Assembly (NCBI GenBank): GCA_964610505.1
Contig: CAZSXU010000008.1
Location: 52,604 to 116,603, forward strand
DNA from: an uncultured bacterium
GTDB lineage: Bacteria; Arandabacterota; Arandabacteria; JAGLYR01
Direction of reading: 5' to 3'
DNA: 64,000 bases
The position numbers were made by a program, and so were the translations under genes. The notes below the pieces were generated by a model. That model had not been told where the DNA came from. It was given only the letters and a program-made list of their open reading frames with translations, and ran no database searches. Within the stretch, counting starts at the first letter, position 1. Every line of letters begins with the position of its first letter. Shown here piece after piece: positions 1 through 24,272 of this stretch.

Positions 1-865
1 TGAAGGCCAGAGACAGCCCGACATGGTGGGTGGCCTCCAGAACCGGATGGTCGACGAAGGCGTAGTCGAAGTGAAAGACGCCCAGCTCAAACCCGGCGCC
101 GTACGTGAATTGCCAGTCCTCCGGCCCGCTCCGATCTTGTTCCATGCCGGCACGCAGGGCAAGCGCGTCAACAAGCCGAAGTTCTCCACCAAGATGAATT
201 CGGTCATCGATGTCCATCGCTACAACTCCGCGAGATCCAAACGCGTAGGCTGTGGCGAAGCGAGAGTTCTGCGGAAAGGCCACGCTCGACGTGCCGTCGA
301 AGTCAACCTCCGTGTCGAAGAGATCCTGTCCTACCCAGCCAAAACGCAGGCCCTTCCAGGGGGTCAGAAGGAGCCCCAGGTCCAGCCCCGTGCCGCTCCC
401 GCTTGTGACCTCGACGCCGTCCAGGTCCGTGTTGCGGGTGAGATACTTGACCGTGCTTCCCAGCGAGAACCACCGGTTGAGGCGGATTCCGTAGGACAGA
501 TCGAATCGGTTCTCTCCGAAACCGAGCTCATCATCATCGAATCCGGAGTGATACCAGTCGACGCCGATCGCCTGGCGCGGGCTCAGCGGAAGAACGAATG
601 CCGCGAAGTTGTCCTTGATGCCGAGCCCGAACAGATCGGCATGGGTAGCGGCAATCTCTTGATTCCCGATTCGAGAGAGACCTGCCGGGTTCCAGAAAAT
701 GGCCGACGCGTCGTTGGCAATGGACGTGAACGCTCCTCCCATTGCAAGGGCGCGCGGCCCGACCGGGACCTGGTACGACGGATTCACGGCGCCCGCTCCA
801 GCCGAAACGGCCAGAACCGATAGAACACATAGACTCCCTATCAACGGTCTGCCTCTCCCAAGCAT
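1..865 (-). CDS. PorV/PorQ (FadL-like) outer-membrane beta-barrel protein; partial, runs off the left edge
   Basis: Not in the ORF track because it has no stop in the window. Manual translation of the minus strand gives MLGRGRPLIGSLCVLSVLAVSAGA-GAVNPSYQVPVGPRALAMGGAFTSIANDASAIFWNPAGL..., with the family motif G.RALAMGGAF...DASA.FWNPAGL followed by amphipathic beta strands. An alternative in-frame ATG lies at 928. Confidence 0.85.
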   Translation of the reverse strand, partial: MLGRGRPLIGSLCVLSVLAVSAGAGAVNPSYQVPVGPRALAMGGAFTSIANDASAIFWNPAGLSRIGNQEIAATHADLFGLGIKDNFAAFVLPLSPRQAIGVDWYHSGFDDDELGFGENRFDLSYGIRLNRWFSLGSTVKYLTRNTDLDGVEVTSGSGTGLDLGLLLTPWKGLRFGWVGQDLFDTEVDFDGTSSVAFPQNSRFATAYAFGSRGVVAMDIDDRIHLGGELRLVDALALRAGMEQDRSGPEDWQFTYGAGFELGVFHFDYAFVDHPVLEATHHVGLSLAF

Positions 866-932
866 CGAAATCACCCCTTCCGGATCATACCGGTCATGGC
901 TGTTGACGGTCTTCCTCCAGAAGCTCATGTCA

Positions 933-3900
933 TCACCTCACGACGGCGAGTGTCTTCACCTGTTTCTCTCCCAGTGCCTCGACGGACACCAGGTAGAGCC
1001 CGTCGGGTACGATGGATCCGCCCCGGTCCCGTCCATCCCAGCGGACCAGGTTCGCGCCCGCGCTCAGGGACTTCCCCTCTATGATTTCACTCACGAGCCG
1101 CCCCGCGCGGTTGTAGATCTTCACGGACACAGGGCCGGAGCGGCTCAGGCTGAAACTGATCGAAACATCATTTTTCGCGAATGCACCGGTCGGGGAAAAC
1201 ACACGGGGGGAGAACGAAATCGATGTGAGTCCCTCTCCCACTCCGACGGCTCCATCGTCCGCGAAGAGCGAGTACCGCCCCTCCCGGGTAATCGCGGCAG
1301 AGATGATCCCAGTAGTGGCATCAATCGTTCCTCCAACGCGCTGCCAGTTCTGTCCATCCACCGTCAAGTACAGCGCAGGGACAAGGGGACTGACTCCGAT
1401 TTCGGGTTCTTGAAGCAGATGTCTGTCCCCTTCTTCCCTTGAAATTGGCACCTGTCCCCATTTCCCCCCCAGCGCCATCTCAAGCGTCGCAGGCTTCGCC
1501 AGAGTGACCCCTTCCCACGAAATGTCATAGCCGGGTGATACATTCACCGCTCCGCTCGAGAGCGTGTCCGGAACGGACCCGTCCTCGACCGCAGCAATAA
1601 CAACGGACGCTTCTTCCGAGAAGGCGCGAGGAACGAAGTAGAGATGGACCTTCCCATTCGTCGTGAAGACATCACCGCCGGACGAAACAGCGACCTTGGC
1701 CGGAGAAGTCTCTTCCGCCCATGGCGCTTCATTGTCCACGACTACCGTTGCGAGCGCTGCGCCCGTGAGTCCCAGCGTATCCGCAACCTCCAGGCGGAGT
1801 TCATAGCTTCCGTCGGGAAAGAGCGTTGTGTCCCATGACGCCAGCGTTGCTTCGGACAGAGGCGTGTCGGACTCCGCCAGCACGGTTGCCGGTGGAGAGC
1901 CCCAGTCCGCCGCGCCGGACGGACGGGCAAGCAGACGATACAGATCAAGACGGGCATCATCCGCCGTCCCCTGCACGGGACACGAGCCTCTCACCACTTC
2001 GCCGGCTGCCGGGGAATGAAGTACCGGGACAGGAGGAGTCGCATCAATCTCTATCGTCACGCTTGCAGGATAAGGATCCACATTGCCCAGACGATCCCTG
2101 GAGCGGACAGAGAACACATGACTCCCGTCGCCCAGGCCGTCAATCGTCCAGAAAGCAGAAGGGGATGGTGAAGACCAAGCGGAGCGATCCAGCGAATAGG
2201 AGAACTCGATTCCTCTCGTCTCCCGGTACGCGGCCTCGAAGGTCAGCGTGTGGCGCCGACTTGCCGAGATGCCCGCCGGCTCCGGATAAAATAGCGTCTT
2301 CGGCGGAACTCGATCCACGCTGTAGATGCTCACCCCGAGATCATCGCCCGGCCCCGAGTATGCACCGCCGACCCAGATCCGCCCCCGGCTATCTTGCGTG
2401 ATGGCTGCGATCCCACCCAGGAGGAGACCGTCACTCTCCGTGATGGTCGTCCAAAATTCTCCATCGAAGCGGCTGACCCCGACGCCCGTCCCGCACCAGA
2501 TGTTGCCTTCTGTGTCCTCGTAGAGGGTCGACACATAGTCTGCCGCCAGGCCATCGACGGAGGTGTACGTCATCCAGTTCTCACCATCGAACCGGCTGAC
2601 TCCCAGGGTGGTCGCCACCCACACGTCGCCGTCGCCGGCCACGACAAGATCCACAACGGCTGTGGACGCGAGCCCCTCGGCCTCTGTCCACCACGTCCAT
2701 GAGTTTCCGTCGAACCGCCCCACTCCGTAGCTCAAACCCGCGACCCAGATCCTCGATAGATCATCCTCGGCAACTGCGGTGAAATGCAGAGTCGGAAGCC
2801 CGTCGGACTCATCGAACGTCTCCCATACTGAATCGCGAATGCGGATCAATCCGGAGCCATCCATTGCCAGCCACATATCCCCCGAGCGGCTCTGGAAAAC
2901 GTCGACCACACCAACGGCGGGATAGGATGTCCAGACAGATCCGTCGAATACGCTGACACCGGCCTGCGTTCCTACCCACAGGCTTCCCTGTTGATCCAGC
3001 TCAAGACTGAGAATGTAGTCGGAGATTAGACCATCTCGGGTTGTGTAGGTTGTGATCGCGGGCTGATCGGTGAAGGTCGTGCCTGTTCCTTGCTCGTAGA
3101 GATTCAGACCATCCAGGGTCGCAATCCAGACGCTCCCGGGTGAGGCCTCCAGGATGTCGTGAATCCGATGACTGGTGATTCCACCGTTGGGGGTCACGTA
3201 GTCCCATGAGTCTGCATCAAAGCGAGCGGCGCCTGCAGGCGTGGCAATCCAGACGTTGCCCCGGGTATCCACCGTGATATCCATCGGGCACGTGTTGGGA
3301 AGACCATCGTCAAGGCCAAACCGTGTCCAGACCACTCCGTCGTATCGAAGAACCCCGTGCTCGCAGACGGCGAACCACAGATAGCCCATGTCATCTTCCG
3401 CGATCTCCGTGAAACTGGCCCCGGGATGATAGTCGACCGGTTCGCTGAAGACCGTCCACGTGTCTCCGTCAAAGCGAGAGACGGCCCTTCCCGCAAACCA
3501 GAGATTCCCCGAACGGTCCTCGTGAATCGCATAGATCCCATCTTCGCCGAGACCCTCGGCGGTCGTCAGTGTAGACCAGGTGGTCCCATCGAAGCGACTC
3601 ACCCCGGAGCTCGTCCCGAACCAGAATGCCCCCTGGGAATCCTCCATCAGGCAGTGCACCCAGTTGTCCGCAAGCCCATCCTCGGTTCTGTACGTCTCCC
3701 ACGTATTCCCGTCAAAGCGGGCGACACCGCCGACCGTGGCAAACCATAGATCGCCGGAATCATCTTCCATCATTCCCGTGACCATGAAATGCGGGAGCTC
3801 GTTGTTCCATGAGAAGTACTCCCAACCTTCTCCGTCAAATCCGGCGACCGAATAACCGGTGGGAGGGCCTGTTTGGCTGGTGAACCACATGCGGCCATTC

Positions 3901-4184
3901 TGGTCCTCCAGAATATCCGACACCCTGTCCAGGTGCAGACCTTCCTCCCCTGTAAGATTCGACCAGTTCCGGCCGTCGTATCGACAAGCCCCGCCGGATG
4001 CTGCCCCGAACCAGAGATTGCCGTTCGAGTCTTCAAAGACACTCTGAACGTTGGATGCGATGAGACCGTCCGCCGGCACGAAAGTCTGCCAGCCGGCCTC
4101 CGCCGGGCATGCGGCGCCGAGGACGACCATCAGAAACACTCCGAGCCCCTTCCTTCGCCAACCGCTATCTGTTCCGGTCCTCAT
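933..4184 (-). CDS. Secreted two-component-regulator-propeller (Reg_prop) protein, paralog 1: 14 blades, Y_Y_Y-like Ig, Ig, ZU5-like, FlgD/T9SS-like CTD
   Basis: Signal peptide then WQTF; 14 D..G.(L/I/V)W(F/I/V)(G/A)T blades; EFSYSLD...W...DG.H.F.VRSRD Ig domain; C-terminus SPRVFSP...KIYNRAGRLV...WDGRD...GLYLV...KTLAVVR. Its start overlaps the upstream stop (ATGA). Confidence 0.9.
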   Translation of the reverse strand: MRTGTDSGWRRKGLGVFLMVVLGAACPAEAGWQTFVPADGLIASNVQSVFEDSNGNLWFGAASGGACRYDGRNWSNLTGEEGLHLDRVSDILEDQNGRMWFTSQTGPPTGYSVAGFDGEGWEYFSWNNELPHFMVTGMMEDDSGDLWFATVGGVARFDGNTWETYRTEDGLADNWVHCLMEDSQGAFWFGTSSGVSRFDGTTWSTLTTAEGLGEDGIYAIHEDRSGNLWFAGRAVSRFDGDTWTVFSEPVDYHPGASFTEIAEDDMGYLWFAVCEHGVLRYDGVVWTRFGLDDGLPNTCPMDITVDTRGNVWIATPAGAARFDADSWDYVTPNGGITSHRIHDILEASPGSVWIATLDGLNLYEQGTGTTFTDQPAITTYTTRDGLISDYILSLELDQQGSLWVGTQAGVSVFDGSVWTSYPAVGVVDVFQSRSGDMWLAMDGSGLIRIRDSVWETFDESDGLPTLHFTAVAEDDLSRIWVAGLSYGVGRFDGNSWTWWTEAEGLASTAVVDLVVAGDGDVWVATTLGVSRFDGENWMTYTSVDGLAADYVSTLYEDTEGNIWCGTGVGVSRFDGEFWTTITESDGLLLGGIAAITQDSRGRIWVGGAYSGPGDDLGVSIYSVDRVPPKTLFYPEPAGISASRRHTLTFEAAYRETRGIEFSYSLDRSAWSSPSPSAFWTIDGLGDGSHVFSVRSRDRLGNVDPYPASVTIEIDATPPVPVLHSPAAGEVVRGSCPVQGTADDARLDLYRLLARPSGAADWGSPPATVLAESDTPLSEATLASWDTTLFPDGSYELRLEVADTLGLTGAALATVVVDNEAPWAEETSPAKVAVSSGGDVFTTNGKVHLYFVPRAFSEEASVVIAAVEDGSVPDTLSSGAVNVSPGYDISWEGVTLAKPATLEMALGGKWGQVPISREEGDRHLLQEPEIGVSPLVPALYLTVDGQNWQRVGGTIDATTGIISAAITREGRYSLFADDGAVGVGEGLTSISFSPRVFSPTGAFAKNDVSISFSLSRSGPVSVKIYNRAGRLVSEIIEGKSLSAGANLVRWDGRDRGGSIVPDGLYLVSVEALGEKQVKTLAVVR
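987..1062. repeat. 76-bp block identical to 4235-4310 (CTD-coding region of paralogs 1 and 2)
   Basis: Direct base-by-base comparison: CACCAGGTAGAGCCCG...GGTTCGCGCCCGCG is identical in both copies. Confidence 0.9.
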
Positions 4185-7100
4185 CTCACCACCGCCAGGG
4201 TCTTGACCTGTTTCTCGCCCAATGCTTCGACGGCCACCAGGTAGAGCCCGTCGGGTACGATGGATCCGCCCCGGTCCCGTCCATCCCAGCGGACCAGGTT
4301 CGCGCCCGCGTTCAGTGTCGTCCCGGCAACCACCTCATCCACCAGACGTCCTGCCCGATTGTAGATCTTCACCGTCACCGGACCCGACCGGCCGAGAGAG
4401 AAACTGATCGAGACCTCTTCATTCGCAAACGCGCCCGTCGGAGAAAACACGCGGGGAGAGAAGGATATGGATGAGAGCCCCTCACCTGTTCCCGCACCTC
4501 CGCTGTCCACGAAGAGCGAGTACCGACCTTCCCGCGTGACGGCAGCCGAGATTGTGCCGGCGCTCGAATCGATCGTCCCGCCGACCCGCTCCCAGTCACC
4601 GCCCTCGGGGAGCACGTACAGCGAGACGTTGTTCTTCTCTTCTCCTATCTCCAACTTCAGCGTCGCAGGCTTTGCCAGAAATGCCCCTCCCCACGAGATG
4701 TCGTATCCCGGTGACACATTCACCGGGCCATCGGGAAGAGAGTCCGGAACGGTGGAAGCGTCCACCGCTTCGACCACGACAACTACATCCTGTGAGAAGC
4801 ATCGCGGGGAGAAGTAGAGACGCACGTCTCCCTCTGTCGTGTAGACGCCCCCGCCGGATGAAGCGCTTACCACCGCGGGTGTTGTCTCGGTTGCCCAGGG
4901 CGCTTCATTGTCCACAATCACCTCAACCAGGTCCGTCCCCACGAGCCCCAGGGTATCCGCCACCTCCAAACGCAATTCGTACAATCCATCCGGCAGCCCC
5001 GTCACTTCCCAGTCGCCGATCACTCCGGCCTCCACCGGAGAGGAGGACTCCACGATGACGGTCGCATCCGGCGATTCCCAGGAAGACGCCGAGGCCGGTC
5101 GAGCCTTGAGCTGCAGAGCCTCAAACCGGAGATCCGACGCTGTTCCCGATACCGTGATGGCTCCGCGTGCAGCGCCTCCATAGGACGGCGAGGAAATCAC
5201 CGGGGCCGGTGGAGTTGCATCGATCTCAAAGGAGATCCGGGCGGGCGTGGGTTCGACATTGAACAACCGATCGCGGGAACGGACCCTTAGCGTGTGAACT
5301 CCGTCGTAGACTTCACTTTGACTGAAGCTACCGAGCGCCGACCACGAGGACCACGGTCCCTCATCAAACGAGTATGAAAACTCGATGTGCGACTCACCAT
5401 GCGCAGCCTCGAAGAACGCACCCACCTGCCGGTTCGCGGAAAGTGCGGCGGGTTCAGCCCGAAAGTGGGTCTGCGGATGCACCCTGTCGGCCTCGTACTT
5501 TGAAAGCCCGGTCAACGTGCCGAACCAGAGGTTCCCGGCGTAGTCTTCCTCAATCGCGTAGCTGGAGAAGTTGGCGATCCCGTCACTTGGCGTGAAGGTC
5601 GTCCAGTTCTCTCCGTTGTAGCGGCTCACTCCCGCTTCTGTCGAGAACCACAGGTTCCCGACGCGATCTTCAAGGATGTGCTGCACCTGGTCGCCGGCAA
5701 GTCCGTCGTCCACCGTGAATTCCGTCCAGTGCTCCCCGTCCCAACGACCCGCCCCCCCGCCCACATCGAACCAGAGATTCCCATCGCTGTCCTCAAACAT
5801 GGCTGTTCCATGGCAGATGTTCACGCTGTCGTAAGGCATAAACGTCGTCCAGGTCTCTCCGTCAAAGCGATTGACCCCTTCCCAGGTCATGAACCAGATA
5901 TCCCCGATCTCATCCGCGAGACCGGCGCGAACATGGTTGTCCGCGAGACCGTGCTCGGTGGTAAAGGTCGTCCAGGTATCTCCGTCGAAGTGGCTGACAC
6001 CCCCGCCGTTGGTTCCAAACCACAGGCCCCCGCCATGGTCCTCCACGATCGCCAGGACACCGTTGTATGCCAGGCCGTGATCTTCGGAATAGGTTGTCCA
6101 GTTCGTACCGTCGAAATGCGCCACCCCACCTGTCAACGTCCCGAACCAAAGTCCGCCGTCTTGATCCTCCAGAATGGTCTTTATCGTCTCGTCCGGCAAC
6201 CCGTCTTCCACTCCATAGCTCACCCAGGTCTTCCCATCAAACCGCGTCAGTCCCGTCCACGTGCCGACCCACAGATCTCCGGACGCGTCCTCGAGAAGAG
6301 ATTCCACCCGCCGGCCGGCCAATCCATCGTCTTCTGTGAAAGTCGACCAGTCCTCCCGGTCGTAGCGGCTGACACCGAGACGCGTTCCGAACCAAAGGTT
6401 GCCGGCGCGGTCCTCTGCAATGGCTTCTACATAATTATTGCTCACCAGGCCGTCGTCGATCGTGAACGTTCTCCAGTTCGTTCCATCGAAGCGGCTCACG
6501 CCTCCGAACATCGTCCCGAACCAGAGATTCCCGTCCCGGTCCTCGTGCATGGAATAGACCCAGTCGTCGGAAAGACCATCGTCCGTGGTGAAAGTGGTCC
6601 AGGTTTCTCCGTCAAAGCGTGTGGCACCTCCGCCGGTCGCTACCCAGACATGTCCACGGCTGTCCGCCATGACATCCAGCACAGTGTCGTCAGGCAAGAC
6701 GTCGTCTTTTGTGTAGGTTGTCCAGGTTGTACCGTCGAAGCGTGACAGTCCACTGTTCCGAGTACCGAACCAGAAGTCTCCGACGCTGTCCTGCACTATG
6801 GCCCGCAGATCATCTTCCGCCAGACCATCGCTTTCCGAGTAAGTCGTCCACGTCGTTCCGTCAAAGCGGCTGACCCCACCTCCCCACGTCGCAAACCAGA
6901 AATTCCCTTGGCGATCCTCGATGATAGCCCTCACGTCCTCGTCCGCCAAGCCGTCCGCCTCCTGGTACACAATCCAACCTGATCCATCGAAGCGGCTCAC
7001 GCCCTTGTCCGTGGCGAACCAAAGATTGCCTTCGCTGTCTTCGACAATCGCTTTCACGTCGTCATCGACCAGACCGTCGGCTTCCGTGTAGGTGGTCCAC

Positions 7101-7294: not shown

Positions 7295-7298
7295 CTCA

Positions 7299-10412: not shown

Positions 10413-13400
10413 CTCACCACCGCAAGGGTGTTGACCTGCTTCGCTCCCAGCGATTCAACGGTCACCAGGTAGAATCCATCCGGAACCTGGCGGCCGCTCT
10501 CGTCTCGGCCGTTCCACCGAACGAGGTTGGCACCGGCACCCATCCGGCTTGCGGCGGCGATTCGCTTCACCATACGCCCCGCGCGGTTGTAGACCTTGAC
10601 GGTCACCGGACCTGATCGACCGATGCTGAAGCTAATGGCGACTTCGTCGTTGCCATATGTACCGGAAGGCGAGAACACGCGGGGAGACATGGAGATTGCA
10701 GACAGGCCCGTCCCTGTGACCGGCGCGGCGGCTTCGGCGAAGAGCGCGTACCGGCCTTCCCGGGTGACGGCTGCTGCCATCACCCCGGCAGCGTCATCGA
10801 CGGTTCCACCGACCCGCTCCCACTCGTTACCCTCTACAAGAACGTACAGCGCAGGAAAAAGGGGACCGGCTCCAATTTCGTCGGAAAATGGGGACGGGTT
10901 CCAATTTCGGCCTTTTGAAATTGGTGTCTGTCCCCATTGTCCCCCTTGTTCGCCAAGGGCCATCTCCAGCGTAGCCGGTTTGCTGAGTGCCCCCCCTCCC
11001 CACGAGATGTCATAGCCAGCGAAGATCCTCGCCGCTCCATTCGACAGTGAATCCGGCACATCCTCCTCCGCCACAGGATCGAGCGCGACCACCGCCTCCC
11101 GAACGAACGCCCCCGGCGGGAAATAGAGATGAATCTCTCTTCCGGGAGTGAAGACGTCTCCTCCCAATGACGCCTGAACGGTCACGGGTGACGTCTTGCC
11201 GATCCACGGAGCCACGTTGTCAATGATCAGCTCCACGTGGTGCGCCCCCGTGAGCCCGAGCGTATCACTCTCCTCAACCCGCAGCTCGTACGCCCCGTCC
11301 GGGAAGTCTTGCGTGTTCCACCAGGCCAGTGTGCCGTCAACCACCGGATACTCGGAATCAACCAGGACCGTGGCCGAGGGCGGATCCCAGCTCCCCTCTC
11401 CCGGAGAACGGACCAGCACCCGATAGCGCCTGAATCGAGGGTCGGCCGCCGTTCCCTTTACGAACACTTCGCCACGGATCACCTCTCCCAGCGACGGTGA
11501 GGAGATCATGGGTACGGGCTGCGTGGCATCAACTTCGAAGGTCCAGCTCGCCGGGTCCGGCTCAACGTTGAAGTACCGATCGCGCGCCCGCACTTGAAAG
11601 GTGTGTATGCCGTCGGCCACGCCCGAGCGACTGTACCCGTTCAGCGTCGACCAGGACGACCAAGGCTCCCCGTTAAACGAACAGGAGAATTCGATGTCGG
11701 GTTCGTCAAACGCCGCCCCATACGCGAACGTCACCTGATTGGACGGCGAGAGGGATGCCGGCCCAAGCAGAAGACGTGTCTGGGGATAGACGCGATCCGG
11801 TTCGAGCACCGAGACTCCGTAGTAGTACGTCTCAATCCAGAAGTTCCCGGCGTGATCCTGAATGATGTCGCGGATCCTGTTGCTTCCGAGCCCGTCGGCG
11901 ATCGTGAGATTCGCCCAGGTCTCCCCGTCAAAGCGCGCAATCCCGCCTCCATCGAAACCTACCCAGAGATTCCCGTCCGTATCCATGACGAGGCCGGAGG
12001 CGTCCTTGTCGGGCAGGCCGTCCGCCACGGTCCAGGCCGTCCACTCCGAGCCGTCGAACCGGGCCACCCCTGCGTTGCGTATGGCAATCCAGATGTTCCC
12101 GGATGGGTCCTCCATCATGTCCCGGCAGTTGTTTCCCGGGAGAACGTCGTCGCTCGTGTAGTGGGTCCAGCTCTGCCCGTCGTAGCGATGCACCCCGGCG
12201 AGACTCGTGGCGAACCAGAGATCTCCGGAATGGTCTTCGAGGATCGCGTATACGGCGCTCTGCCAAACCATCTCTGCTTCGATTTCGAGCTTGGTCCAGG
12301 TCTGGCCGTCGTACTGGACGGCTCCCCGGTAGGTCCCGAACCAGAGATCTCCCCTCCGGTCCTCATAAAACGAGAAGAAGACGCTGTCCGGCAGCCCATC
12401 TGAAGGAGAGAAGATGTCCCAGGTTTCGCCGTCGAACTGCACGACACCCGCGCGGTCGGTTCCGAACCACAGGTCTCCCGTCGAGGACTGGCCGATGCAC
12501 TGAACAAAGTAGTCCGGAAACACATCCGTGGGACCGTAGTGGGTCCAATCCCGCCAATCGTAACGGTCCAGCCCCATCGAGTTGGAAAGCCAGACATCTC
12601 CGTCCCTGTCCTGAAAGATATCCAACATGGAATCGTTGACGAGCACGTTCTGATCCGTGTAGTGCGTCCAGCTCTGCCGGTCGTAGCGGCTCACGCGATC
12701 GGAATGACCGAACCATAGATTCCCCGCCCGGTCCTCAAGAATCGACCGCACGATGGAACTTGCGAGTCCGTCGCCCGGCGTGAAAGTGCGCCAACTCAAC
12801 CCATCGAAGCGGGTCACCCCCCCGCCGTAGGTCCCGAACCAGAGGTTTCCGTCCCGATCCGCGAGGATCGACAGTACGGAGTTGCTTCCGAGCCCGTCCT
12901 CCTTCGTGAAAGTCGTCCAGTTCGTTCCATCGAAACGGCTCACTCCGTACGAAGTGCCGAACCACAGATTCCCGTCCCGGTCCTCGTCCATGCCACGGAC
13001 GACATTATTCACCAGCCCATCTTCTTCCGTGTAGGTCTGCCAGGTCACTCCGTCGTAGCGACTGACTCCGGATCCGGTTGCGAACCAAAGGTGGCCGAAG
13101 TGGTCTTCGAGCATCATGATCACCTCGTCGTCCGCCAGGCCACTCTCTTCCCGGAAAGAGTACCAGCTGGTTCCGTCGTAGTGGGCCACACCGTTGCCTG
13201 TGGGGAACCACAGACCGCCCTGGCTGTCTTCCAGGATGGAGTTGACACTGTACCACGGCAGGACGTCGGGGACCGTGTAGGTGGTCCAGGCAGTGCCGTC
13301 GTAGCGGCTGAGACCACGAAACGTGCCAAACCAGAGGTCGCCGTTCCGATCTTCATGAACCGCGAAAACGATGTCGAAGGCCAACCCGTCCTCTTCTGTC

Positions 13401-13678
13401 AGGGTCGCCCAGGTCAGACCGTCAAAGCGCGTGGCGCCTGCCCCCGTAGGGAACCAGAGGTTGCCGTCCCGGTCCTCGAAGAGTGGCTTCCCGTCATAGT
13501 GAAAGAGACCGTCGGATTTGTCGAAGGTCTGCCAGGTGGCGCGCGCGGGCGGAGCCGAGGCGAGCAGGAGCACGAGCGCAAGCGCTGTCACGGCGGGAGA
13601 AACCGCGGTCGGTCGCCGCGGTTCCTTCTTTCCATCGGTCCCATAGGACCTGTATGACCTATGGTTCTTTGTAAACAT
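10409..13678 (-). CDS. Secreted Reg_prop propeller protein with CTD, paralog 4
   Basis: Same architecture; 14 blades. Start uncertain: ATG 13678, or GTG 13591 giving MTALALVLLLASAPPARA-TWQTF. Confidence 0.85.
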   Translation of the reverse strand: MFTKNHRSYRSYGTDGKKEPRRPTAVSPAVTALALVLLLASAPPARATWQTFDKSDGLFHYDGKPLFEDRDGNLWFPTGAGATRFDGLTWATLTEEDGLAFDIVFAVHEDRNGDLWFGTFRGLSRYDGTAWTTYTVPDVLPWYSVNSILEDSQGGLWFPTGNGVAHYDGTSWYSFREESGLADDEVIMMLEDHFGHLWFATGSGVSRYDGVTWQTYTEEDGLVNNVVRGMDEDRDGNLWFGTSYGVSRFDGTNWTTFTKEDGLGSNSVLSILADRDGNLWFGTYGGGVTRFDGLSWRTFTPGDGLASSIVRSILEDRAGNLWFGHSDRVSRYDRQSWTHYTDQNVLVNDSMLDIFQDRDGDVWLSNSMGLDRYDWRDWTHYGPTDVFPDYFVQCIGQSSTGDLWFGTDRAGVVQFDGETWDIFSPSDGLPDSVFFSFYEDRRGDLWFGTYRGAVQYDGQTWTKLEIEAEMVWQSAVYAILEDHSGDLWFATSLAGVHRYDGQSWTHYTSDDVLPGNNCRDMMEDPSGNIWIAIRNAGVARFDGSEWTAWTVADGLPDKDASGLVMDTDGNLWVGFDGGGIARFDGETWANLTIADGLGSNRIRDIIQDHAGNFWIETYYYGVSVLEPDRVYPQTRLLLGPASLSPSNQVTFAYGAAFDEPDIEFSCSFNGEPWSSWSTLNGYSRSGVADGIHTFQVRARDRYFNVEPDPASWTFEVDATQPVPMISSPSLGEVIRGEVFVKGTAADPRFRRYRVLVRSPGEGSWDPPSATVLVDSEYPVVDGTLAWWNTQDFPDGAYELRVEESDTLGLTGAHHVELIIDNVAPWIGKTSPVTVQASLGGDVFTPGREIHLYFPPGAFVREAVVALDPVAEEDVPDSLSNGAARIFAGYDISWGGGALSKPATLEMALGEQGGQWGQTPISKGRNWNPSPFSDEIGAGPLFPALYVLVEGNEWERVGGTVDDAAGVMAAAVTREGRYALFAEAAAPVTGTGLSAISMSPRVFSPSGTYGNDEVAISFSIGRSGPVTVKVYNRAGRMVKRIAAASRMGAGANLVRWNGRDESGRQVPDGFYLVTVESLGAKQVNTLAVVR

Positions 13679-16100
13679 CCCACTCATCCCAATCCACGTG
13701 GACGGTGGTCGTGAAGATCCGATCATTGCATCGACGATCCGTCCAGATCATGTAGAGATATTCGACCGGCCCCAGGTGATCCGCGTGGCTCACCGTGATG
13801 GACTCGAAGTCCTCAAGACCAAGCCCGCAGTAGCTGTTGAGGCCCCACGACCGCTGTGCGTAGACATCCACCCAGGTGCGCGAGCTGCTCGTATTCATCC
13901 CACAGGGCGGCAGATCCGTAGCGGGGGCAAAGAGTTCGGGCGGGATTTCATCCAGATTCGTGACGGTGAGCTCGAACTCGATTCTTCCCGAGCGCGCACG
14001 AACATTCAGAAGACCGAGTTCCGGGGCAGGCATGTCCGGATAGCACCGGCCGTAGTCCGTTGAGGCCCGGTTCGAAGTTGCCGTGACGCCACAGTACCTA
14101 TCCGTCAGAACAACGTAGATGGAGTCAGGAGGCGACTTCTTCGCCGGAAGGTCGAACCAGATGCCGTCATAGAGCTGGTCCCGGTCCGTGAAGTGGCACA
14201 GCTCGCCGAGGATCTCGCCCGTGTTGCCGTAGATGCCAACCTTCACGCGGGAGGCAATATCGTCTTCCCCGCATGGCTCCAGATGCGGGGCGGCGGAAAA
14301 CAGCTCCCGCCTGTAGCTCCGGTAGTTGGTGATGGAAAGACGCCACCGGGTCCAGGGTTCTCCATCCCGCTCGAGTTCCTCCGTCCCGGTGATGAACAGG
14401 GACGGCGCCGACAGATCCTCGCAATAGGGGCACTCCGCCTGCGACGTCTTGACGGCAAACTCTCGAGACGTCGACCACTCGCCCCAGATGCCACCCGTCA
14501 TCGCCCGGACTCTCCAGGACCAGTCGAACCGGTACGCGTCCTCGACCCAGCCCGAGGACGCCTTCATCTGGTAGGAGGTGTCGGACAGATCCGACGCGTT
14601 CACTTCGAATTCCGGAATGTCAGCGTCCGGCTGATCCACCTGAAGGTGGTATCGTTCCGCCCCCGGACACGAGTGCCACTCGAATTCCCAGACCGCGCTG
14701 TCCGGCCAGTCGTGGCAGTTGTTGGCCATCACCGTAGCGGGTTTCGGCGAGATCGGCTCGGGAACACAGGCTTCGGCGGCGGCTCCCAGAAACTGCTGGA
14801 CGGCCGTCAGGACGCTCGCGTCTCGGGTCAGATCTTCGTGCCGTGCGGCGACCAGAGTCGTCTCGGCCGCCGAGTAGGTTTCGTGCGGTTCGAACCCCAT
14901 GACGGCGCTTTCGACCGACACCAGGCCATCGTCCGGGCCCTCGATGCAGGCGCTGAGGCGGCCTTCTTGCTCTCCGGCGATCAGGAGGGCGTTGATGTCG
15001 TATGGCTCCGTCCAGCCCTGGTTAAGATCCTCGAGAAACGCGCTTCCTTTTACCAGCTGCCGTGCCCCCGGGCCGAGGAGCCCGGTGGGTTTGGCCCCGG
15101 GTGAATCGACGAGCGAGCGCTCGAGCTGAACGAACTCCGAGAAACGGCCTAGGTAGTCTTCCCACACGCGGCAACTGTCGGAGACCATCCCGCCGTGGGG
15201 CGAACCCAGAAGAACCAGATGTCCGACCTCAAAGTCGTCCGCGTGGTTCTTGAGAAAGTGGCGCGCCACGATTCCGCCCATGGAGTGGGCAATGATCGTG
15301 AGCCGAGGCTTCACTTCCCCCAGAAGGGCAATGAGCGACGAGTACAGCAGATCCGAAGATGTCTCGATGGTCCGGTACGGATCGTATTGAAAGCCCCAGA
15401 CAATCCCGTTTTCCCCCGCGAGGCCTTCAACGAACTCCTGGAATGTGACCCCTGCTGGGGTCTCCTGTTGCCAGGCGCCCTCGTGCGAGGAGGAGATTCC
15501 ATGGATCAGAAGATATAGCTCCTCGCCGTCATGAACGCGTCGGCCGAAGTGGTGGATTCCAAGCCAGTCTGGGTGGAGAGGCTCTCCGACGTCGGAGAGG
15601 TCCTCTCTCTCCCCGGCCCAGATTACGACTCCGCCGTCGTCATCCCCCGCGCCCCCCGGATCCAACCCCACATAGGCCAACGTCAGCCTGCCACCCGAGA
15701 AACTCTGCCGGCCCATTCCCAGGGTCTCTCCGTTATCGAAGAAGGCGAAGACTTCGCCCCCCGCGGGAGAACTCACGTCATGAAGATCCACGTACACGGG
15801 GCTTCTGAGGGGTCCCCCGAGATCCAGGCGGCAGACGGGCCCCAGCGGTCGGGTGTCTGCAAAATCGAGATTCGGAGACGTCTCCAGCGACAAGACGACA
15901 TTGGCGCTGACGGCCAGCGCGTACGCCGGGATTCTGAGGGAGACTCCCTCCAGATCGATGGTGCCTCCACCCGTGAACGTTATGAAACGACTGGCCGTCC
16001 GTTCGTCTCCGGGCGCGGTGGGTTTCTTTTTGTCTCCACAGGAGACCAGGCCCAGCACCAGAAGACACAGGACGCTGAGGACCACTCGTCTATGTTTCAT
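13659..16100 (-). CDS. Lipoprotein: ZU5-like domain, alpha/beta-hydrolase (PGAP1/lipase-like), FN3-like domain and a duplicated Cys-containing C-terminal domain
   Basis: Start at 16100, MKHRRVVLSVLCLLVLGLVS-C (lipobox). Oxyanion LIHGISS, nucleophile elbow IAHSMGG, then DDGLV (Asp) and ARHEDL (His). Confidence 0.8.
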   Translation of the reverse strand: MKHRRVVLSVLCLLVLGLVSCGDKKKPTAPGDERTASRFITFTGGGTIDLEGVSLRIPAYALAVSANVVLSLETSPNLDFADTRPLGPVCRLDLGGPLRSPVYVDLHDVSSPAGGEVFAFFDNGETLGMGRQSFSGGRLTLAYVGLDPGGAGDDDGGVVIWAGEREDLSDVGEPLHPDWLGIHHFGRRVHDGEELYLLIHGISSSHEGAWQQETPAGVTFQEFVEGLAGENGIVWGFQYDPYRTIETSSDLLYSSLIALLGEVKPRLTIIAHSMGGIVARHFLKNHADDFEVGHLVLLGSPHGGMVSDSCRVWEDYLGRFSEFVQLERSLVDSPGAKPTGLLGPGARQLVKGSAFLEDLNQGWTEPYDINALLIAGEQEGRLSACIEGPDDGLVSVESAVMGFEPHETYSAAETTLVAARHEDLTRDASVLTAVQQFLGAAAEACVPEPISPKPATVMANNCHDWPDSAVWEFEWHSCPGAERYHLQVDQPDADIPEFEVNASDLSDTSYQMKASSGWVEDAYRFDWSWRVRAMTGGIWGEWSTSREFAVKTSQAECPYCEDLSAPSLFITGTEELERDGEPWTRWRLSITNYRSYRRELFSAAPHLEPCGEDDIASRVKVGIYGNTGEILGELCHFTDRDQLYDGIWFDLPAKKSPPDSIYVVLTDRYCGVTATSNRASTDYGRCYPDMPAPELGLLNVRARSGRIEFELTVTNLDEIPPELFAPATDLPPCGMNTSSSRTWVDVYAQRSWGLNSYCGLGLEDFESITVSHADHLGPVEYLYMIWTDRRCNDRIFTTTVHVDWDEWDVYKEP

Positions 16101-16465
16101 GATGTCCATCCAGTGCCGGCGCGCCGGCTGAATCCAGAAGAGAACCGTGCGTTTCCAACCGGATTCCGGGGAACAGGGTTTCCCAGCCCCACCCTGTCCC
16201 TTTGAGAGAACTACAGGAATCCGGTCCGAATGTTGGACGTGGAGATGGAGAAAGCTTCCGCTGACCCCTCGATATAGTCCCGTCGCTCTGCGACGGGACC
16301 ACTCGGGACGAACGGAGTTCGTCCCCATCTCCGTGCCATGCTAATCATACCGTTCGTCCCGAGTGCGGCGCATCCCGCCGAAGGCTATCTATCGCCGTGT
16401 ATCGAGGGACTGCCCGGGGGCGCCTTCCTCCAAACCCCTGGGATCTACCTCGGTACGGTACCCTC

Positions 16466-17503
16466 CTATCCCTTTGCCATATGCAGTTGCCAGAGATCCC
16501 GCTCGCTCCAGCGGAGAACCGGGGCGACGGCCAGCCGCCCGGTCCTGCCGATGCTCCGCATGAGGTACCGGATCTCCTTGAACTTTTCCCCAACCTCGGA
16601 ATCCGCCGGAACCTCAAATCCGGCCTGCCGCATGAGAAGCGTTCCCTTGGCCCGAATGGAGAGCTCCACATGCAGCCGGATGAAGCACTGCAGATCTACG
16701 ACGACATCCCCGGGGAAATGCTTTCTCAGGGACGCGAGGTACTCACCGATCGGGGTCTGCGACGTCCGCCCCGTGGTCATCATCAGAAGCAACTCGGCAT
16801 CCGTGTCAAAACTGAGCCCAAGCCATCTCCGGAGGGCACGCTCACTCTGTCGAAATGCGATCATCATGATGAGCGGCAATCCAACAACGAGCCCTACGGC
16901 GGACAGCACGGGTGAGACAAGGAAATGGTTGAAGAGGGAGTGAACGAGAATCGCGACAATGAGTCCGGGGACGAACGTCCGACACCAGCCTGATGCACGA
17001 CGCTCAGAAGTGCCTGCCGACAGGATGCCGAAGAGTCCGGCCGTTCCCCCGTGCATGAGCGCGGTTCCAAGCCCTCTCAGAACGCAGGCCGCGACCCCAA
17101 GATCCGGGTGGGCCCGGAGATAGTAGACATTCTCGCTCAGGGCAAACCCCGTCCCGATAGCGAATCCATATATGGCCGCGTCCACCATGAATCCGACACG
17201 GCGGGATCGAATCAGATACACGAGTCCGGCGGCCTTCAGGATCTCCTCCGGGAAGGGCGCTCCGTAGCGGGCGTAGATGGCCGGGTCCCAGCCAAGAAGA
17301 GAGAGCAGGCCGTTGTTGACAACGAGGCTGATAAGCGCGATGGCCGATCCGAAGAGTACGGATCCAACAACGGAGGTGGGCCGGATGAGTTTGTAGCTGT
17401 CGAGAAAGACGAGCATGAGGAGCAGCACGGCGACAGGCAGAATGCTGACGGCCATTCGAAGGAACTCCGCCGTGGCGAAAACCGTCAACAGGGGTGCGGG
17501 CAT
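16466..17503 (-). CDS. prsW: PrsW-family intramembrane metalloprotease with a soluble C-terminal extension
   Basis: Family motifs EEILK, FALSEN, MHGG and HSLFNH, with multiple transmembrane segments. Confidence 0.85.
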   Translation of the reverse strand: MPAPLLTVFATAEFLRMAVSILPVAVLLLMLVFLDSYKLIRPTSVVGSVLFGSAIALISLVVNNGLLSLLGWDPAIYARYGAPFPEEILKAAGLVYLIRSRRVGFMVDAAIYGFAIGTGFALSENVYYLRAHPDLGVAACVLRGLGTALMHGGTAGLFGILSAGTSERRASGWCRTFVPGLIVAILVHSLFNHFLVSPVLSAVGLVVGLPLIMMIAFRQSERALRRWLGLSFDTDAELLLMMTTGRTSQTPIGEYLASLRKHFPGDVVVDLQCFIRLHVELSIRAKGTLLMRQAGFEVPADSEVGEKFKEIRYLMRSIGRTGRLAVAPVLRWSERDLWQLHMAKG

Positions 17504-17516
17504 GTGGACCCTCGCT

Positions 17517-18278
17517 CTACTCTACCCGGACGTCCTCCTCGAAGAGCAACTTCCCGGCAGAGAAGGCCTGAATGTGAACCGCAGGATGAGAGCGAGAAGG
17601 ATCTCGGAAAGTGATCAGGACCTTGTGGTGACCCGTATGCAGAAGTTCGACTCGGTCCTCCGCCACCCGGACAGCGTGGTCCTCCCCCTCCAGCAAACGA
17701 TACCCTTCATAACAGGCCCCCGTGTCCCCAACGCACTCGATCACGACCCGAATCTCCGCTTCGCCCGAGAGCTCAAGCAATGCCAGGATCAGATCGTCCG
17801 AATAGCGAACGAGGAGTGACCCGGACACTTCCGGGTGGTCGATGACCACCGGATCAACTGTTACGCCCGAATCCGCCTCGACCATGGCCCCCACCAGGGC
17901 ATCCCGATCTCCGGCGGGCGTCACATTCGATAGGACGGCATAGAGCCCGATCCCGAGCACCAAGCCGGCCGCAAACCCGTAGGCCACCCGGGGGCTCAAC
18001 ACCGAGCGAAGCGCCTCGAACCACGAGACCGAATCGGATTCGACCTGACCCGGTCGCTTCTTCGCATCGACGGCGGAGAGGATCGCTCCTCTCATGCCTG
18101 ACGGAGGATCCAGGTCCTCGATCTCCCCGAACGCGTCTCCCAGACGGAGGAGTTCTTCATAATAGCGTTTCGCCTCCGGCGACGTGTCGAGAAGCCGCTG
18201 CAACTCGCGGCTCTCCTCCGGAGAATTCACGCCGTCGATTTCCTGATTCATGAGTTCGATATGGCGTTCTTCAATCAA
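17517..18278 (-). CDS. Membrane anti-sigma factor (single TM, periplasmic beta domain)
   Basis: TTG start overlapping the sigma stop (TTGA). N-terminal helical IELMNQEIDG...ELQRLL, TM segment VAYGFAAGLVLGIGLYAVL, directly downstream of an ECF sigma. Confidence 0.75.
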   Translation of the reverse strand: MIEERHIELMNQEIDGVNSPEESRELQRLLDTSPEAKRYYEELLRLGDAFGEIEDLDPPSGMRGAILSAVDAKKRPGQVESDSVSWFEALRSVLSPRVAYGFAAGLVLGIGLYAVLSNVTPAGDRDALVGAMVEADSGVTVDPVVIDHPEVSGSLLVRYSDDLILALLELSGEAEIRVVIECVGDTGACYEGYRLLEGEDHAVRVAEDRVELLHTGHHKVLITFRDPSRSHPAVHIQAFSAGKLLFEEDVRVE

Positions 18279-18814
18279 TTCATGAACCCCCGGCTGCGGA
18301 GCGTGTCTTTCAGGATCTGTCGTCCGGTGTAGAGCCTCGACTTCACCGTCTTCTCGGGGATATCCAGAATGCCACCGATGTCGCTGTACGAGAGCTCCAT
18401 GAAATACTTGAGAATGATGACGATCCGGTAGTCCAGGTTCAGGTCGGCCAGCGCGCACTCCAGATGGTAACTCTTCTCGCCAGCGGCCGCCTGCTCCTCA
18501 GGGCTCTTGCCTCCCGAAGCCATGTTGTCCTCGAAATCGACCGTGCGTTTCCCCCTGCTGATATGGTTCAGCGACTCATTCACGGCAATCTTGCAGAGCC
18601 AGCTGAAGAGTTTATGGGCAGGGTTGTAGCGATCGAGTCTCTCGTAGACTTTGATGAAGACGGTCTGCGTAATATCCTGGGCGTCGTCCGTATTGCGGAC
18701 AATCCGGTACGTGACGTTGAAGATGGGCTTCTCGTACTTCTCCAGAATCACTTCGAAGGCTCCGCTGTCGCCCTGTACAACTCGCTGTACCAGTTCCAGA
18801 TCGGTGTTCGACAT
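18275..18814 (-). CDS. ECF-family RNA polymerase sigma-70 factor (RpoE/SigW-like)
   Basis: Region 2 DAQDITQTVFIKVY...FSWLCKIAVN; region 4 LSYSDIGGILDIPEKTVKSRLY. Confidence 0.92.
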   Translation of the reverse strand: MSNTDLELVQRVVQGDSGAFEVILEKYEKPIFNVTYRIVRNTDDAQDITQTVFIKVYERLDRYNPAHKLFSWLCKIAVNESLNHISRGKRTVDFEDNMASGGKSPEEQAAAGEKSYHLECALADLNLDYRIVIILKYFMELSYSDIGGILDIPEKTVKSRLYTGRQILKDTLRSRGFMN

Positions 18815-18888
18815 AACTACCAGCGGTTCCCAGAGAAGTTGATGGGCTTTCTGGAGAAAGACGCGAAAGGTCCCGTCAGTCTCGCCCC

Positions 18889-19173
18889 CTATTCGATATC
18901 AAAGACATAGTCGAATCCCGCAACGCGGAAAAGATCGAGAATCCGATCCTGGAGGCGGATGAGCTTCAGCTCCTTGCCCGAATCCTTCAGCCGCTTCTGA
19001 GTTTCCAGGAGAACACGGAGTCCCGCGCTGGAGATGTATTCCAACTCGCTCAGATCGAGGGTGCAGGAGCCGGTGATCTTTTCGAGAACATCCCGCGCCT
19101 TGTCCGCCTGGGAAGCGTCCAGCCTCCCGGACAGCCGAATGCGATCACCACTCTCGCTCCGGATGCTAAACAT
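18889..19173 (-). CDS. STAS-domain anti-anti-sigma factor
   Basis: LSGRLDA...LDLSELEYISSAGLRVLL with the phospho-acceptor Ser. Start at ATG 19173 overlaps the upstream stop. Confidence 0.9.
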   Translation of the reverse strand: MFSIRSESGDRIRLSGRLDASQADKARDVLEKITGSCTLDLSELEYISSAGLRVLLETQKRLKDSGKELKLIRLQDRILDLFRVAGFDYVFDIE

Positions 19174-19579
19174 CCTCTCCCTCCAGTTCCTTAACCGCTG
19201 TGACGGAAAGAACTCCCGCCTCATGCTCAAAGGACAAACGGTCCATCACACTCCTCACGAGATGGAGGCCGAGTCCCCCGATCTCGTGATTGCCCAGATG
19301 ATGCTTCAGATCCACGGGTGTAACCAGGGACCCGTCAAAACGGTCCACGTCATCGTCCCGGACGCGGAGAACCAGCCGATCTCCATCCCGGTCCAGGCTG
19401 ACCGTGATCCGATCCCGCCCCCGGGGATTGTGCTTCACCATGTTCGTGAAGAGTTCCTCGGCGGCCAGCTTGGCATCGAAGACGTCCTTCTCTCGGAGGC
19501 CGGCAGACGCAGCGAACTGATCCACCCATGCGAACAGTTCGTCCAGGGCGGCGATCTCTCTTCTGAGTTCCGTCTTCAT
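19166..19579 (-). CDS. RsbW/SpoIIAB-like serine kinase / anti-sigma (HATPase_c_2)
   Basis: N-box EELFTNMVKH and G2 box IGGLGLHLV; adjacent to the STAS gene; start MKTELRR at 19579. Confidence 0.85.
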   Translation of the reverse strand: MKTELRREIAALDELFAWVDQFAASAGLREKDVFDAKLAAEELFTNMVKHNPRGRDRITVSLDRDGDRLVLRVRDDDVDRFDGSLVTPVDLKHHLGNHEIGGLGLHLVRSVMDRLSFEHEAGVLSVTAVKELEGEDV

Positions 19580-19610
19580 GGGATTCCGAGGGTTCGGGGT
19601 CCTGCTCGTC

Positions 19611-19658
19611 TGTGGATTCTGTATCCACAATGCTATCACACCCTTGTCCCAGTTGCCA
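19611..19658 (-). promoter_or_regulatory. Candidate extended -10 sigma70 promoter for the leftward operon, with a palindromic operator over the start site
   Basis: Minus strand TGGCAA-N17-TAGCAT with a TGn extension (19658-19630). TGTGGAT-N5-ATCCACA inverted repeat at 19611-19629. Confidence 0.45.
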
Positions 19659-24120: not shown

Positions 24121-24193
24121 CCGGCGGGATTAGTCTCCAACTTTTCGGGTTTCTGATCGGTAGTTCAAGCTGAAGGCTGGATTACGATAGATC

Positions 24194-24222: not shown

Positions 24223-24272
24223 TTACCATTGTTTGTTGTTTTTTGGTCCATCCTCTCTCCAGGAGAGCACTT

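Follow-up and report, generated by a model that had tools for sequence, protein, structure and literature searches.

The periplasmic Reg_prop domains of Bacteroides hybrid two-component system (HTCS) sensors bind glycan ligands. In the btr locus of Bordetella, BtrS, a sigma factor of the extracytoplasmic function (ECF) type, and the anti-sigma factor BtrA are paired with BtrU, BtrW and BtrV (PMC7498569). In the PorA-PorY-PorX-SigP pathway of Porphyromonas gingivalis, a protein with a type IX secretion system (T9SS) C-terminal domain, which also binds PorV, is the ligand of an inner-membrane sensor, and this sensor controls an ECF sigma factor and secretion-related genes (PMC12152298, PMC4800418). 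For Sinorhizobium meliloti, the outer-membrane barrel NsrA is reported to be needed for signal perception by the CHASE2 adenylate cyclases CyaK and CyaD (PMC7529298, PMC13001267). Here we describe a region, within a 64,000-nucleotide stretch of contig CAZSXU010000008.1 from an uncultured bacterium (the window), that joins two apparently undescribed conserved signalling gene sets. Eleven co-oriented minus-strand genes span positions 1-19579 and constitute two conserved modules in tandem, not one unit. Module A (19579-16466) encodes an RsbW-like protein, a STAS protein, an ECF sigma factor, a single-pass anti-sigma factor and a PrsW-family protease. Module B (16100-1, running beyond the window edge) encodes a lipoprotein hydrolase, four double-propeller proteins and an 880-aa barrel protein; the parent contig shows, 3' of the barrel gene and in the same orientation, genes for a 233-aa TPR protein and a 685-aa CHASE2-SpoIIE (PP2C) membrane phosphatase. 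On balance, we lean towards the two modules cooperating in signalling, with the CHASE2-PP2C acting on the STAS/RsbW switch as the likeliest link and with ECF-driven feedback.

All eleven genes were verified, and gene calls together with Pfam and NCBIfam searches confirm the domains that an earlier note, made from the letters of the window, had assigned to them. Gene junctions were taken from gene calls on public copies of the same contig. The overlapping stop and start codons that the note had pointed out are real: rsbW and the STAS gene overlap by 8 nt, the ECF and anti-sigma genes by 4 nt, and the hydrolase and propeller genes by 29 nt, while 13 nt separate the anti-sigma gene from that of PrsW and the junctions between propeller genes lie anywhere between a 4-nt overlap and a 4-nt gap. 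There are two exceptions to this tight packing, a 74-nt gap 5' of the ECF gene and a 365-nt gap between the PrsW and hydrolase genes. The latter contains, in this order, a 16-bp perfect hairpin, a 10-bp hairpin and an ECF-type promoter motif at 16239-16209. The stem-loop pair has an RNA folding energy of -58.3 kcal/mol (z = -4.35) and, having no U-tract, is a putative terminator of the sigma unit. Because this gap holds hairpins and a promoter-like motif, Modules A and B are probably separate transcription units, and the single operon proposed in the earlier note is unlikely. A generic scan for sigma-70 promoters and terminators yielded nothing useful, with counts below the shuffle expectation.

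Module A is a reduced copy of a gene set that is conserved across many phyla. Its PrsW-like protein has more than 1280 homologues, which are about 50-60% identical over the full length, including a tail of about 130 aa. We compared the neighbourhoods of 80 genome loci around PrsW homologues, using for counts of gene order the 40 loci with at least 7 kb of upstream sequence. (Labels such as L005, L086 and L176 denote genome or contig loci compared with the window; L086 is a copy of its parent contig.) The canonical cluster encodes on one strand an RsbW-like protein, a STAS protein, an ECF sigma factor, an anti-sigma factor, a low-complexity repeat protein, a protein of about 1000 aa and PrsW. 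STAS, ECF, anti-sigma and PrsW genes are co-directional and in order at 32 of the 40 loci, which bears out the sigma block as a genuine system. The cluster is found in Eisenbacteria, Zixibacteria, KSB1, Ignavibacteria, Bacteroidota, Calditrichota, Marinimicrobia, Gemmatimonadota, Thermoanaerobaculia and Beta/Gammaproteobacteria. At many canonical loci a GAF-PP2C phosphatase is encoded just upstream of rsbW or just downstream of PrsW; most phyla have such a phosphatase beside Module A, while the sigma blocks of the window and of the Eisenbacterial clusters L005 and L085 have no such neighbour.

The tightest genomic partner of PrsW is the outer-membrane protein of about 1000 aa, the gene of which lies immediately 5' of that of PrsW at 73 of the 80 loci (for example L005 6933-9929 and L075 7032-9971). 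In this protein, an N-terminal HExxH motif (MNHELVH) is combined with a PD40-like propeller and a C-terminus that resembles a barrel; no Pfam or NCBIfam family includes it. Module A of the window lacks it, together with the repeat protein and the GAF-PP2C, and a tblastn search found no homologue of it anywhere in the 64-kb window; the closest relative of the window PrsW (61% identity) sits in the canonical gene order. The propeller/barrel block of the window was considered as a substitute for the missing protein, and this was rejected, as locus L172 carries both. The repeat protein encoded after the anti-sigma factor (L005 4401-6824 and equivalents) is membrane-anchored, consists almost entirely of ATLQEKA-type heptad-like repeats and varies in length from about 300 to 800 aa among canonical clusters.

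The proteins of Module A belong to known families at the family level (PrsW, ECF, STAS and HATPase_c_2) and fail at the equivalog level (PrsW, SigW and RsbW). The RsbW-like protein scores 46.8 bits against an RsbW equivalog cutoff of 145 in NCBIfam, and an N-box (EELFTN) and a G2 box (GGLGLHL) are conserved in 35 cluster homologues. The STAS protein keeps its phosphorylatable-serine motif, YISSAGLG, across 40 homologues. A HATPase_c_2 protein and a STAS protein with a conserved phosphorylatable serine, as in partner switches of the RsbU/V/W type, are therefore both present, and the CHASE2-SpoIIE protein encoded outside the window may be their cognate PP2C phosphatase. The ECF sigma factor consists of regions sigma-2 and sigma-4 only and has its anti-sigma gene directly 3'; its best NCBIfam match is SigW (128 bits, under the cutoff of 209), and it is 54% identical to the ECF sigma factor of the canonical Eiseniibacteriota cluster L005. 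The anti-sigma factor matches NF052375 weakly (30.4 bits against a cutoff of 100). Its N-terminal motif of the sigma-binding type is conserved in 37 cluster homologues and is followed by a transmembrane helix (residues 101-123 in a 256-aa reading) and by a poorly conserved C-terminal outer domain of about 130 aa.

Membership of the protease in the PrsW family (PF13367, MEROPS M82) is clear, with 76.9 bits against a gathering score of 23.5, and the catalytic-type residues E86, E87, E124, H151, H188, N192 and H193 are invariant in 20 sequences. It is not equivalent to the PrsW of Bacillus subtilis (NF033739, 32.7 bits against a cutoff of 225) and has an extra C-terminal domain. A structure model (pLDDT 83) has APH-1 as its best fold match (8oqz_C, E 0.056, probability 1.0, TMt 0.59), a likeness expected for the superfamily, and no match falls under E 0.001. 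A sequence search of the PDB with the PrsW profile gave no match. Neither did the fold search return anything for the tail of about 130 aa, and Pfam searches up to E 1 returned nothing for this tail or for the anti-sigma ectodomain. Based on synteny, the anti-sigma factor of the window is the putative substrate of this protease.

Module B is conserved as well. The barrel protein represents a well-conserved family of at least 239 proteins, and the conserved set consists of one or more Reg_prop/FlgD_ig proteins, the barrel-transglutaminase-TPR protein, usually a TPR protein of about 230 aa, and a CHASE2 membrane protein. Propeller, barrel-transglutaminase-TPR and CHASE2 proteins are encoded together at 17 of the 19 barrel-homologue neighbourhoods with enough sequence, and the NsrA-CyaK type of association, a CHASE2 protein encoded with an outer-membrane barrel, is likewise found at 17 of 19. 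The output domain attached to CHASE2 differs between loci. It is a PP2C phosphatase on the contig of the window and at L088, L091-L095, L097, L172, L173, L175 and L176, a Ser/Thr kinase followed by an ECF sigma factor of the PF07638 type at L171 and L174, a sigma-54 activator at L098, L100 and L104, a nucleotide cyclase at L096 and a CHAT domain at L103. Because the extracytoplasmic set is constant while the CHASE2 outputs interchange, Module B looks like a sensory input module. The presence of the hydrolase and the copy number of the propellers differ between lineages. In the kinase variants (L171 13302-16316 and L174 13523-16222), the PF07638-type ECF gene and a gene of about 65 aa lie directly 3' of the CHASE2-kinase gene, an arrangement that resembles kinase-regulated ECF groups.

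The hydrolase has a visible lipobox (LVSC) and an AHSMGG nucleophile motif. Because a search of 5.8 billion proteins returned no homologue besides itself, it is treated as lineage-specific and as unusable for tracing Module B. The four propeller proteins match Reg_prop with 166 bits and, at the extreme C-terminus, FlgD_ig with 37.7 bits against a cutoff of 27; in Pfam and NCBIfam, CHU_C stays under its cutoff and TIGR04183 was not detected. Signal peptides were seen by eye. The best solved relatives are sensor domains of Bacteroides hybrid two-component systems (4a2l, E 1e-46; 3v9f), of which the Reg_prop double propeller is present and the transmembrane segment, histidine kinase and receiver domains are absent. 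An identity as PorZ was rejected, with 57-65 bits against a cutoff of 260 for NF052228 and PDB sequence matches to HTCS sensors and none to PorZ. Over their whole length the paralogues share 45-50% identity, against 63-84% across the last 150 or so alignment columns, which suggests constraint or gene conversion acting on the C-terminal sorting-type domain. Short remnants of such C-terminal domains (ending ...TLAVVR) lie just 5' of the first propeller gene at L090 2871-3059 and L176 6451-6663.

The barrel gene is cut by the window edge, and the full gene (L086 13257-15899) encodes a barrel, a transglutaminase-like domain and TPRs. In a model of the protein (pLDDT 76), the top fold match is PorV (6h3i_F, E 3e-8, TMt 0.57), followed by FadL-family barrels. 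The barrel thus passes both the PorV/PorQ family model NF033709 and the test for a PorV-like fold, and fails the equivalog models of PorV (33 against 250), PorQ (31 against 220) and PorV2 (66.6 against 325). Beyond the barrel there is a 570-aa extension, presumably periplasmic, with a transglutaminase-like middle domain (DUF553, 20.7 bits against a cutoff of 20.5), in which a GDCDD motif and H554 are invariant across the family, and with TPRs at the C-terminus. The end motif ...RAADQ...LYWK is shared between this 880-aa protein (L086 15850-15899) and the 233-aa TPR protein (L086 16570-16621), Y876 and W877 being invariant in the barrel-TPR family, and the 233-aa protein aligns to the C-terminal part of the barrel protein. 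Because of this shared motif and alignment the two look like paralogous arms. In porins in general, an even number of strands puts both termini in the periplasm. By analogy, an even-stranded barrel would place the transglutaminase-like/TPR arm in the periplasm, in the same compartment as the CHASE2 domain and the small TPR protein with its signal peptide, so that a physical chain could run from the surface to the inner membrane.

The two modules are separable, yet no fewer than two other lineages also have them side by side, and in a third Module B has an ECF gene of the Module A type as its neighbour. At L176, genes for STAS, ECF, anti-sigma, PrsW, propeller, barrel-TPR, TPR protein and CHASE2-PP2C lie on one strand in the same tandem order as in the window, with a barrel protein only 55% identical to that of the window; L176, like the window, lacks the repeat protein and the protein of about 1000 aa. 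At L172, Module B ends in a CHASE2-PP2C gene and, one gene further on, a complete canonical Module A follows in convergent orientation. At L092, a CHASE2-PP2C gene is convergent with an ECF gene of the Module A type, which shares 58% identity with its L172 counterpart. The gene-neighbourhood search that the earlier note had proposed therefore does find the blocks side by side, in tandem at L176 and convergent at L172. The note had also held that its idea would fall if the two blocks were transcribed separately and never occurred together elsewhere: separate units are probable, and the blocks do occur together at L176 and L172 (at L092 as the ECF gene only).

This linkage bears on a competing explanation of the locus, namely that two unrelated modules are neighbours by accident in this genome. 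Most of the 80 Module A loci have no Module B nearby, and several Module B loci have no Module A nearby, as chance adjacency would predict. Against it, the modules adjoin in three different arrangements in other lineages, an ECF motif lies between them in two genomes, and their partner-switch parts are complementary, so that we regard mere coincidence as very improbable. Since the linkage recurs, and since Module A of the window has no adjoining PP2C of its own while Module B supplies one, a functional link with the phosphatase as the bridge is favoured.

A promoter motif provides a second connection. Directly 5' of the ECF start codon, 36 loci carry CCAACTTTT-N12-(T/G)GTA(A/T)TT. The AAC...GTA spacing of this motif is that of ECF promoters (AAC ... 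N16-17 ... GT), and is of the same type as in the sigmaW consensus TGAAAC-N16-CGTA. At canonical loci the motif occurs a second time right behind the anti-sigma gene, where it precedes the genes for the repeat protein, the protein of about 1000 aa and PrsW. We scanned the whole window with a position weight matrix (PWM) built from 33 genomes, leaving out the window's own contig, and used 200 dinucleotide-preserving shuffles as a control. All four sites in the window (Table 1) are intergenic and each is oriented toward the downstream gene. The shuffles give 0.03 expected matches per window at scores of 15.6 or more and 0.195 at 12.6 or more, and a score of at least 20.3 was reached in 1 of 200. 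L176 carries a P1 motif 5' of its ECF gene and, immediately after PrsW, the element CCAAC-N17-GTAATT, i.e. the same element at the same place as the P2-like motif of the window, between PrsW and Module B. PWM scans of the high-GC or distant Module B loci L091-L104 and L171-L175 were mostly uninformative owing to incomplete contigs, drifted motifs and different sigma types.

Two of the sites point away from the modules. On the plus strand, positions 19809-40770 encode four very large secreted proteins of 1416, 1488, 2634 and 1372 aa, and the genes for the last three lie head to tail behind the motif at 24134-24164. SBBP or beta-helix repeats and a FlgD_ig C-terminus were found in the three giants that were scanned (1416, 1488 and 1372 aa). 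Because the motif sites are intergenic and point at them, and few are expected in shuffles, Module B and the neighbouring surface-protein genes are predicted targets of the ECF sigma factor. With the motif 5' of it, the propeller block would count among the outputs of the sigma factor, be it an input as well or not, and ECF-driven expression of Module B would add a feedback loop. The spacer of the P2-like motif also forms a 15-nt imperfect inverted repeat with a downstream leader segment (16153-16167 / 16216-16230; GGAATCCGGTCCGAA / TTCCAACCGGATTCC), which could be an operator or a structural element.

The same motifs could be explained if Module B were output only. Module B and the giant beta-helix proteins would then be ECF-controlled surface proteins (adhesins, glycan binders, a lipase-like enzyme) that an envelope-stress ECF/anti-sigma/PrsW system switches on, the CHASE2-PP2C would serve another partner switch, and the propellers would sense nothing for this sigma factor. 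ECF-type motifs do precede Module B and the beta-helix genes, canonical clusters drive downstream envelope proteins with the same motif, and lineages differ in the hydrolase and in how many propellers they have. However, the swapping of CHASE2 output domains points to a sensory role of Module B, two CHASE2-kinase versions directly precede an ECF gene of their own, and the STAS and RsbW genes of the window have no adjoining PP2C other than the one Module B supplies. We consider a pure output role unlikely, although it is the strongest of the competing explanations.

In the favoured reading, with the modules cooperating, Module B would sense something at the surface or in the envelope. The secreted Reg_prop double propellers, with their sorting-type C-terminal domain, would be held at or on the PorV-like barrel, the periplasmic transglutaminase-like/TPR arm of which, together with the second TPR protein, may contact the CHASE2 domain of the inner-membrane PP2C. 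The activated CHASE2-PP2C would dephosphorylate the STAS protein, and the dephosphorylated STAS protein would capture the RsbW-like protein and free its target, which may be the ECF sigma factor or may be the cytoplasmic tail of PrsW. Alongside these steps or after them, the PrsW-family protease would start proteolysis of the single-pass anti-sigma factor, so that ECF activity would rise together with or through this proteolysis. The free sigma factor would then transcribe from CCAACTTT-N12-GTAnTT promoters, the predicted targets being its own unit, Module B (positive feedback) and the neighbouring giant beta-helix surface proteins. The cell would probably use the joined modules to report on its surface and then to remodel it. 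Of this scheme, the comparisons establish which genes are present, how each module is conserved, that their linkage recurs and where the motifs lie, whereas all contacts between proteins, the ligand and the direction in which the signal runs are inferred.

A fuller version of this scheme is more tentative, and we hold it as a possibility that is rather doubtful as a whole. In it, Module B would be an unrecognised surface signalling family of the FCB group and relatives, in which propellers sit on a PorV-like barrel whose arm relays ligand binding or secretion status to CHASE2 proteins with interchangeable outputs; in the window, the PP2C would act through STAS/RsbW to gate the PrsW-dependent destruction of the anti-sigma factor.

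The earlier note had instead made PrsW the main relay: propellers would sense a ligand or damage and signal to the ECF sigma factor mainly through site-1 cleavage by PrsW, the partner switch being secondary. PrsW, anti-sigma and ECF genes are syntenic across phyla, the catalytic residues of PrsW are conserved, the anti-sigma topology is RsiW-like, and PrsW lies directly 3' of the anti-sigma gene in the window and at L176. However, no component joins the propellers or the barrel to PrsW, Module B elsewhere has CHASE2 transducers and no PrsW, the tightest partner of PrsW elsewhere is the outer-membrane protein that is absent here, and the protease falls far short of the B. subtilis PrsW equivalog. 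Such a route is distinctly unlikely; the bridging component would rather be the CHASE2-PP2C encoded after the barrel, feeding the STAS/RsbW switch. Of the trans-envelope sensing that the note had seen in the propellers and the PorV-like barrel, the sensory module stands, kept together with a CHASE2 receptor whose outputs are swapped, while the connection of propellers to PrsW does not.

Several observations weigh against cooperation of the modules through the phosphatase. Concerning the switch itself, no G1 DxGxG box for ATP binding can be recognised in the RsbW-like family, which casts doubt on whether these proteins act as kinases. At L176, an RsbW gene is missing from the surrounding 10 kb. 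Concerning the linkage, Module B occurs without an adjoining Module A at L088, L173 and L175, and in the Eiseniibacteriota chromosome CP070702.1 the modules are about 880 kb apart. Concerning export, no core T9SS genes were seen in the window and its flanks. Concerning the promoters, the P1 motif ends directly at the ECF start codon, with identical spacing in most of the 36 loci, unlike the normal spacing between a -10 element and a start site; with normal geometry the transcript would begin inside the first codons, or else it would be leaderless with unusually short spacing. The motif upstream of Module B is weak in the high-GC relatives L088 and L173 and absent in L172, and a strong match at L090 was downgraded, as it sits inside a remnant of C-terminal-domain coding sequence.

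Table 1. Features of the two modules and their surroundings (window coordinates unless a locus is named; cutoffs follow "vs").
Feature	Position	Strand	Family or evidence
RsbW-like anti-sigma / serine kinase (putative), 137 aa	19166..19579	-	HATPase_c_2, 71.8 bits (Pfam)
STAS anti-sigma antagonist, 94 aa	18889..19173	-	STAS_2 57.9 bits; TIGR00377 63.3 bits vs 53.45
P1 ECF-type promoter motif CATCAACTTC-N12-GGTAGTT, abutting the ECF ATG	18815..18845	-	PWM 23.1, top score in window
ECF sigma factor, 179 aa	18275..18814	-	Sigma70_r2 + Sigma70_r4_2 (Pfam)
Single-pass anti-sigma factor, 253 aa	17517..18278	-	weak NF052375 match, one transmembrane helix
PrsW-family intramembrane protease with extra cytoplasmic helical domain of about 130 aa, 345 aa	16466..17503	-	PF13367
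Perfect 16-bp stem-loop followed at once by a 10-bp one, putative terminator of the sigma unit	16277..16365	-	inverted-repeat search, RNA fold
P2-like ECF promoter motif CGTCCAACATTC-N-CTGTAGTT, some 110 nt 5' of the first hydrolase codon	16209..16239	-	PWM 15.6
Lipoprotein alpha/beta hydrolase, 813 aa, first gene of Module B	13659..16100	-	DUF7379/PGAP1 (Pfam)
Four paralogous double-propeller proteins	10409-13687, 7299-10406, 4181-7294, 933-4184	-	Reg_prop, Ig-like, C-terminal FlgD_ig
PorV-like outer-membrane barrel, 5' part of 880-aa gene	1..928	-	NF033709, 100.4 bits vs 90
CHASE2-SpoIIE (PP2C) phosphatase, 685 aa, outside the window	L086 16631-18688	same as Module B	
Weaker motif copy (candidate only), upstream of divergent 1416-aa SBBP/beta-helix/FlgD_ig gene (19809-24059)	19689..19719	+	PWM 12.6
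ECF-type motif upstream of three giant beta-helix/FlgD_ig genes (24213-40770)	24134..24164	+	PWM 20.3

Elsewhere in the window, positions 43028-50453 and 56861-61183 encode unrelated housekeeping functions (an Hdr-like Fe-S/FAD oxidoreductase cluster, FtsH and TilS).

To our knowledge, the CHASE2 sensor domain is widespread and only one upstream partner of it has been studied so far. If the proposals made here are true, CHASE2 gains a conserved partner set of a surface propeller, a PorV-like barrel and a TPR arm, its first general one. Sorting-type C-terminal-domain proteins and PorV-like barrels would then act in signalling, beyond secretion and anchoring, and the PorA-PorY example would extend beyond Porphyromonas. 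A multi-phylum cluster would be defined that comprises PP2C, RsbW, STAS, ECF, anti-sigma, a repeat protein, an outer-membrane protein of about 1000 aa and PrsW, and its predictable promoter motif would open a regulon to testing in many lineages that have not been cultured. A single ECF sigma factor may be the point where partner switching meets intramembrane proteolysis, so that the two become coupled.

Neither conserved cluster was found described in the searchable literature, a scope that does not prove absence; the ECF classification paper has no mention of a PrsW, STAS or CHASE2 context. None of the known systems with which we compared the region has this composition. With the sigmaW-RsiW-PrsW system of B. 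subtilis it shares an ECF sigma factor that matches SigW best, a single-pass anti-sigma factor with an extracytoplasmic tail and the catalytic residues of PrsW. In contrast to that system, the protease gene lies inside the conserved cluster and its product has a cytoplasmic helical domain of about 130 aa with no known relative, a tail that B. subtilis PrsW does not have; the SigW and PrsW equivalog cutoffs are not reached, the cluster contains no site-2 protease, the organism is a diderm, and an outer-membrane protein is part of the canonical versions. RsbU/RsbV/RsbW, SpoIIE/AA/AB and the Bordetella btr system resemble the region in having PP2C, STAS and HATPase_c_2 proteins, beside an ECF sigma factor and an anti-sigma factor and with control of exported proteins (PMC7498569). 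Unlike in these partner switches, the phosphatase has a periplasmic CHASE2 sensor here, where most other lineages have a GAF domain, the anti-sigma factor is membrane-bound and paired with PrsW, and the RsbW-like G1 box is not evident.

The trans-envelope logic of NsrA-CyaK, with an outer-membrane barrel and an inner-membrane CHASE2 protein, is the same in architecture. In contrast to NsrA-CyaK, the output is a PP2C here (elsewhere a kinase, a sigma-54 activator, a cyclase or CHAT), secreted propellers belong to the set, and transglutaminase-like and TPR domains are fused to a barrel of the PorV-like kind. The PorA-PorY-PorX-SigP pathway has a histidine kinase and a response regulator, not a CHASE2-PP2C and a partner switch, and has neither a dedicated barrel-TPR protein nor PrsW. 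As in the T9SS pairs PorU-PorV, PorZ-PorQ and type B cargo with PorP-like proteins, where cargo adjoins its own barrel (PMC5562754, PMC8545088, PMC9143113), C-terminal-domain double propellers are encoded here next to a PorV/PorQ-family barrel. The propellers, however, fail the PorZ model and are closer to HTCS sensors, and the barrel fails the PorV, PorQ and PorV2 models and carries the 570-aa extension. Finally, the Bacteroides HTCS sensor BT4663 (PDB 4a2l) has a homologous Reg_prop double propeller (E 1e-46). In place of its transmembrane, kinase and regulator parts, the propeller proteins of the window have a signal peptide and a C-terminal sorting-type domain, and because of these the propeller domain would here be exported, possibly by a T9SS, rather than periplasmic.

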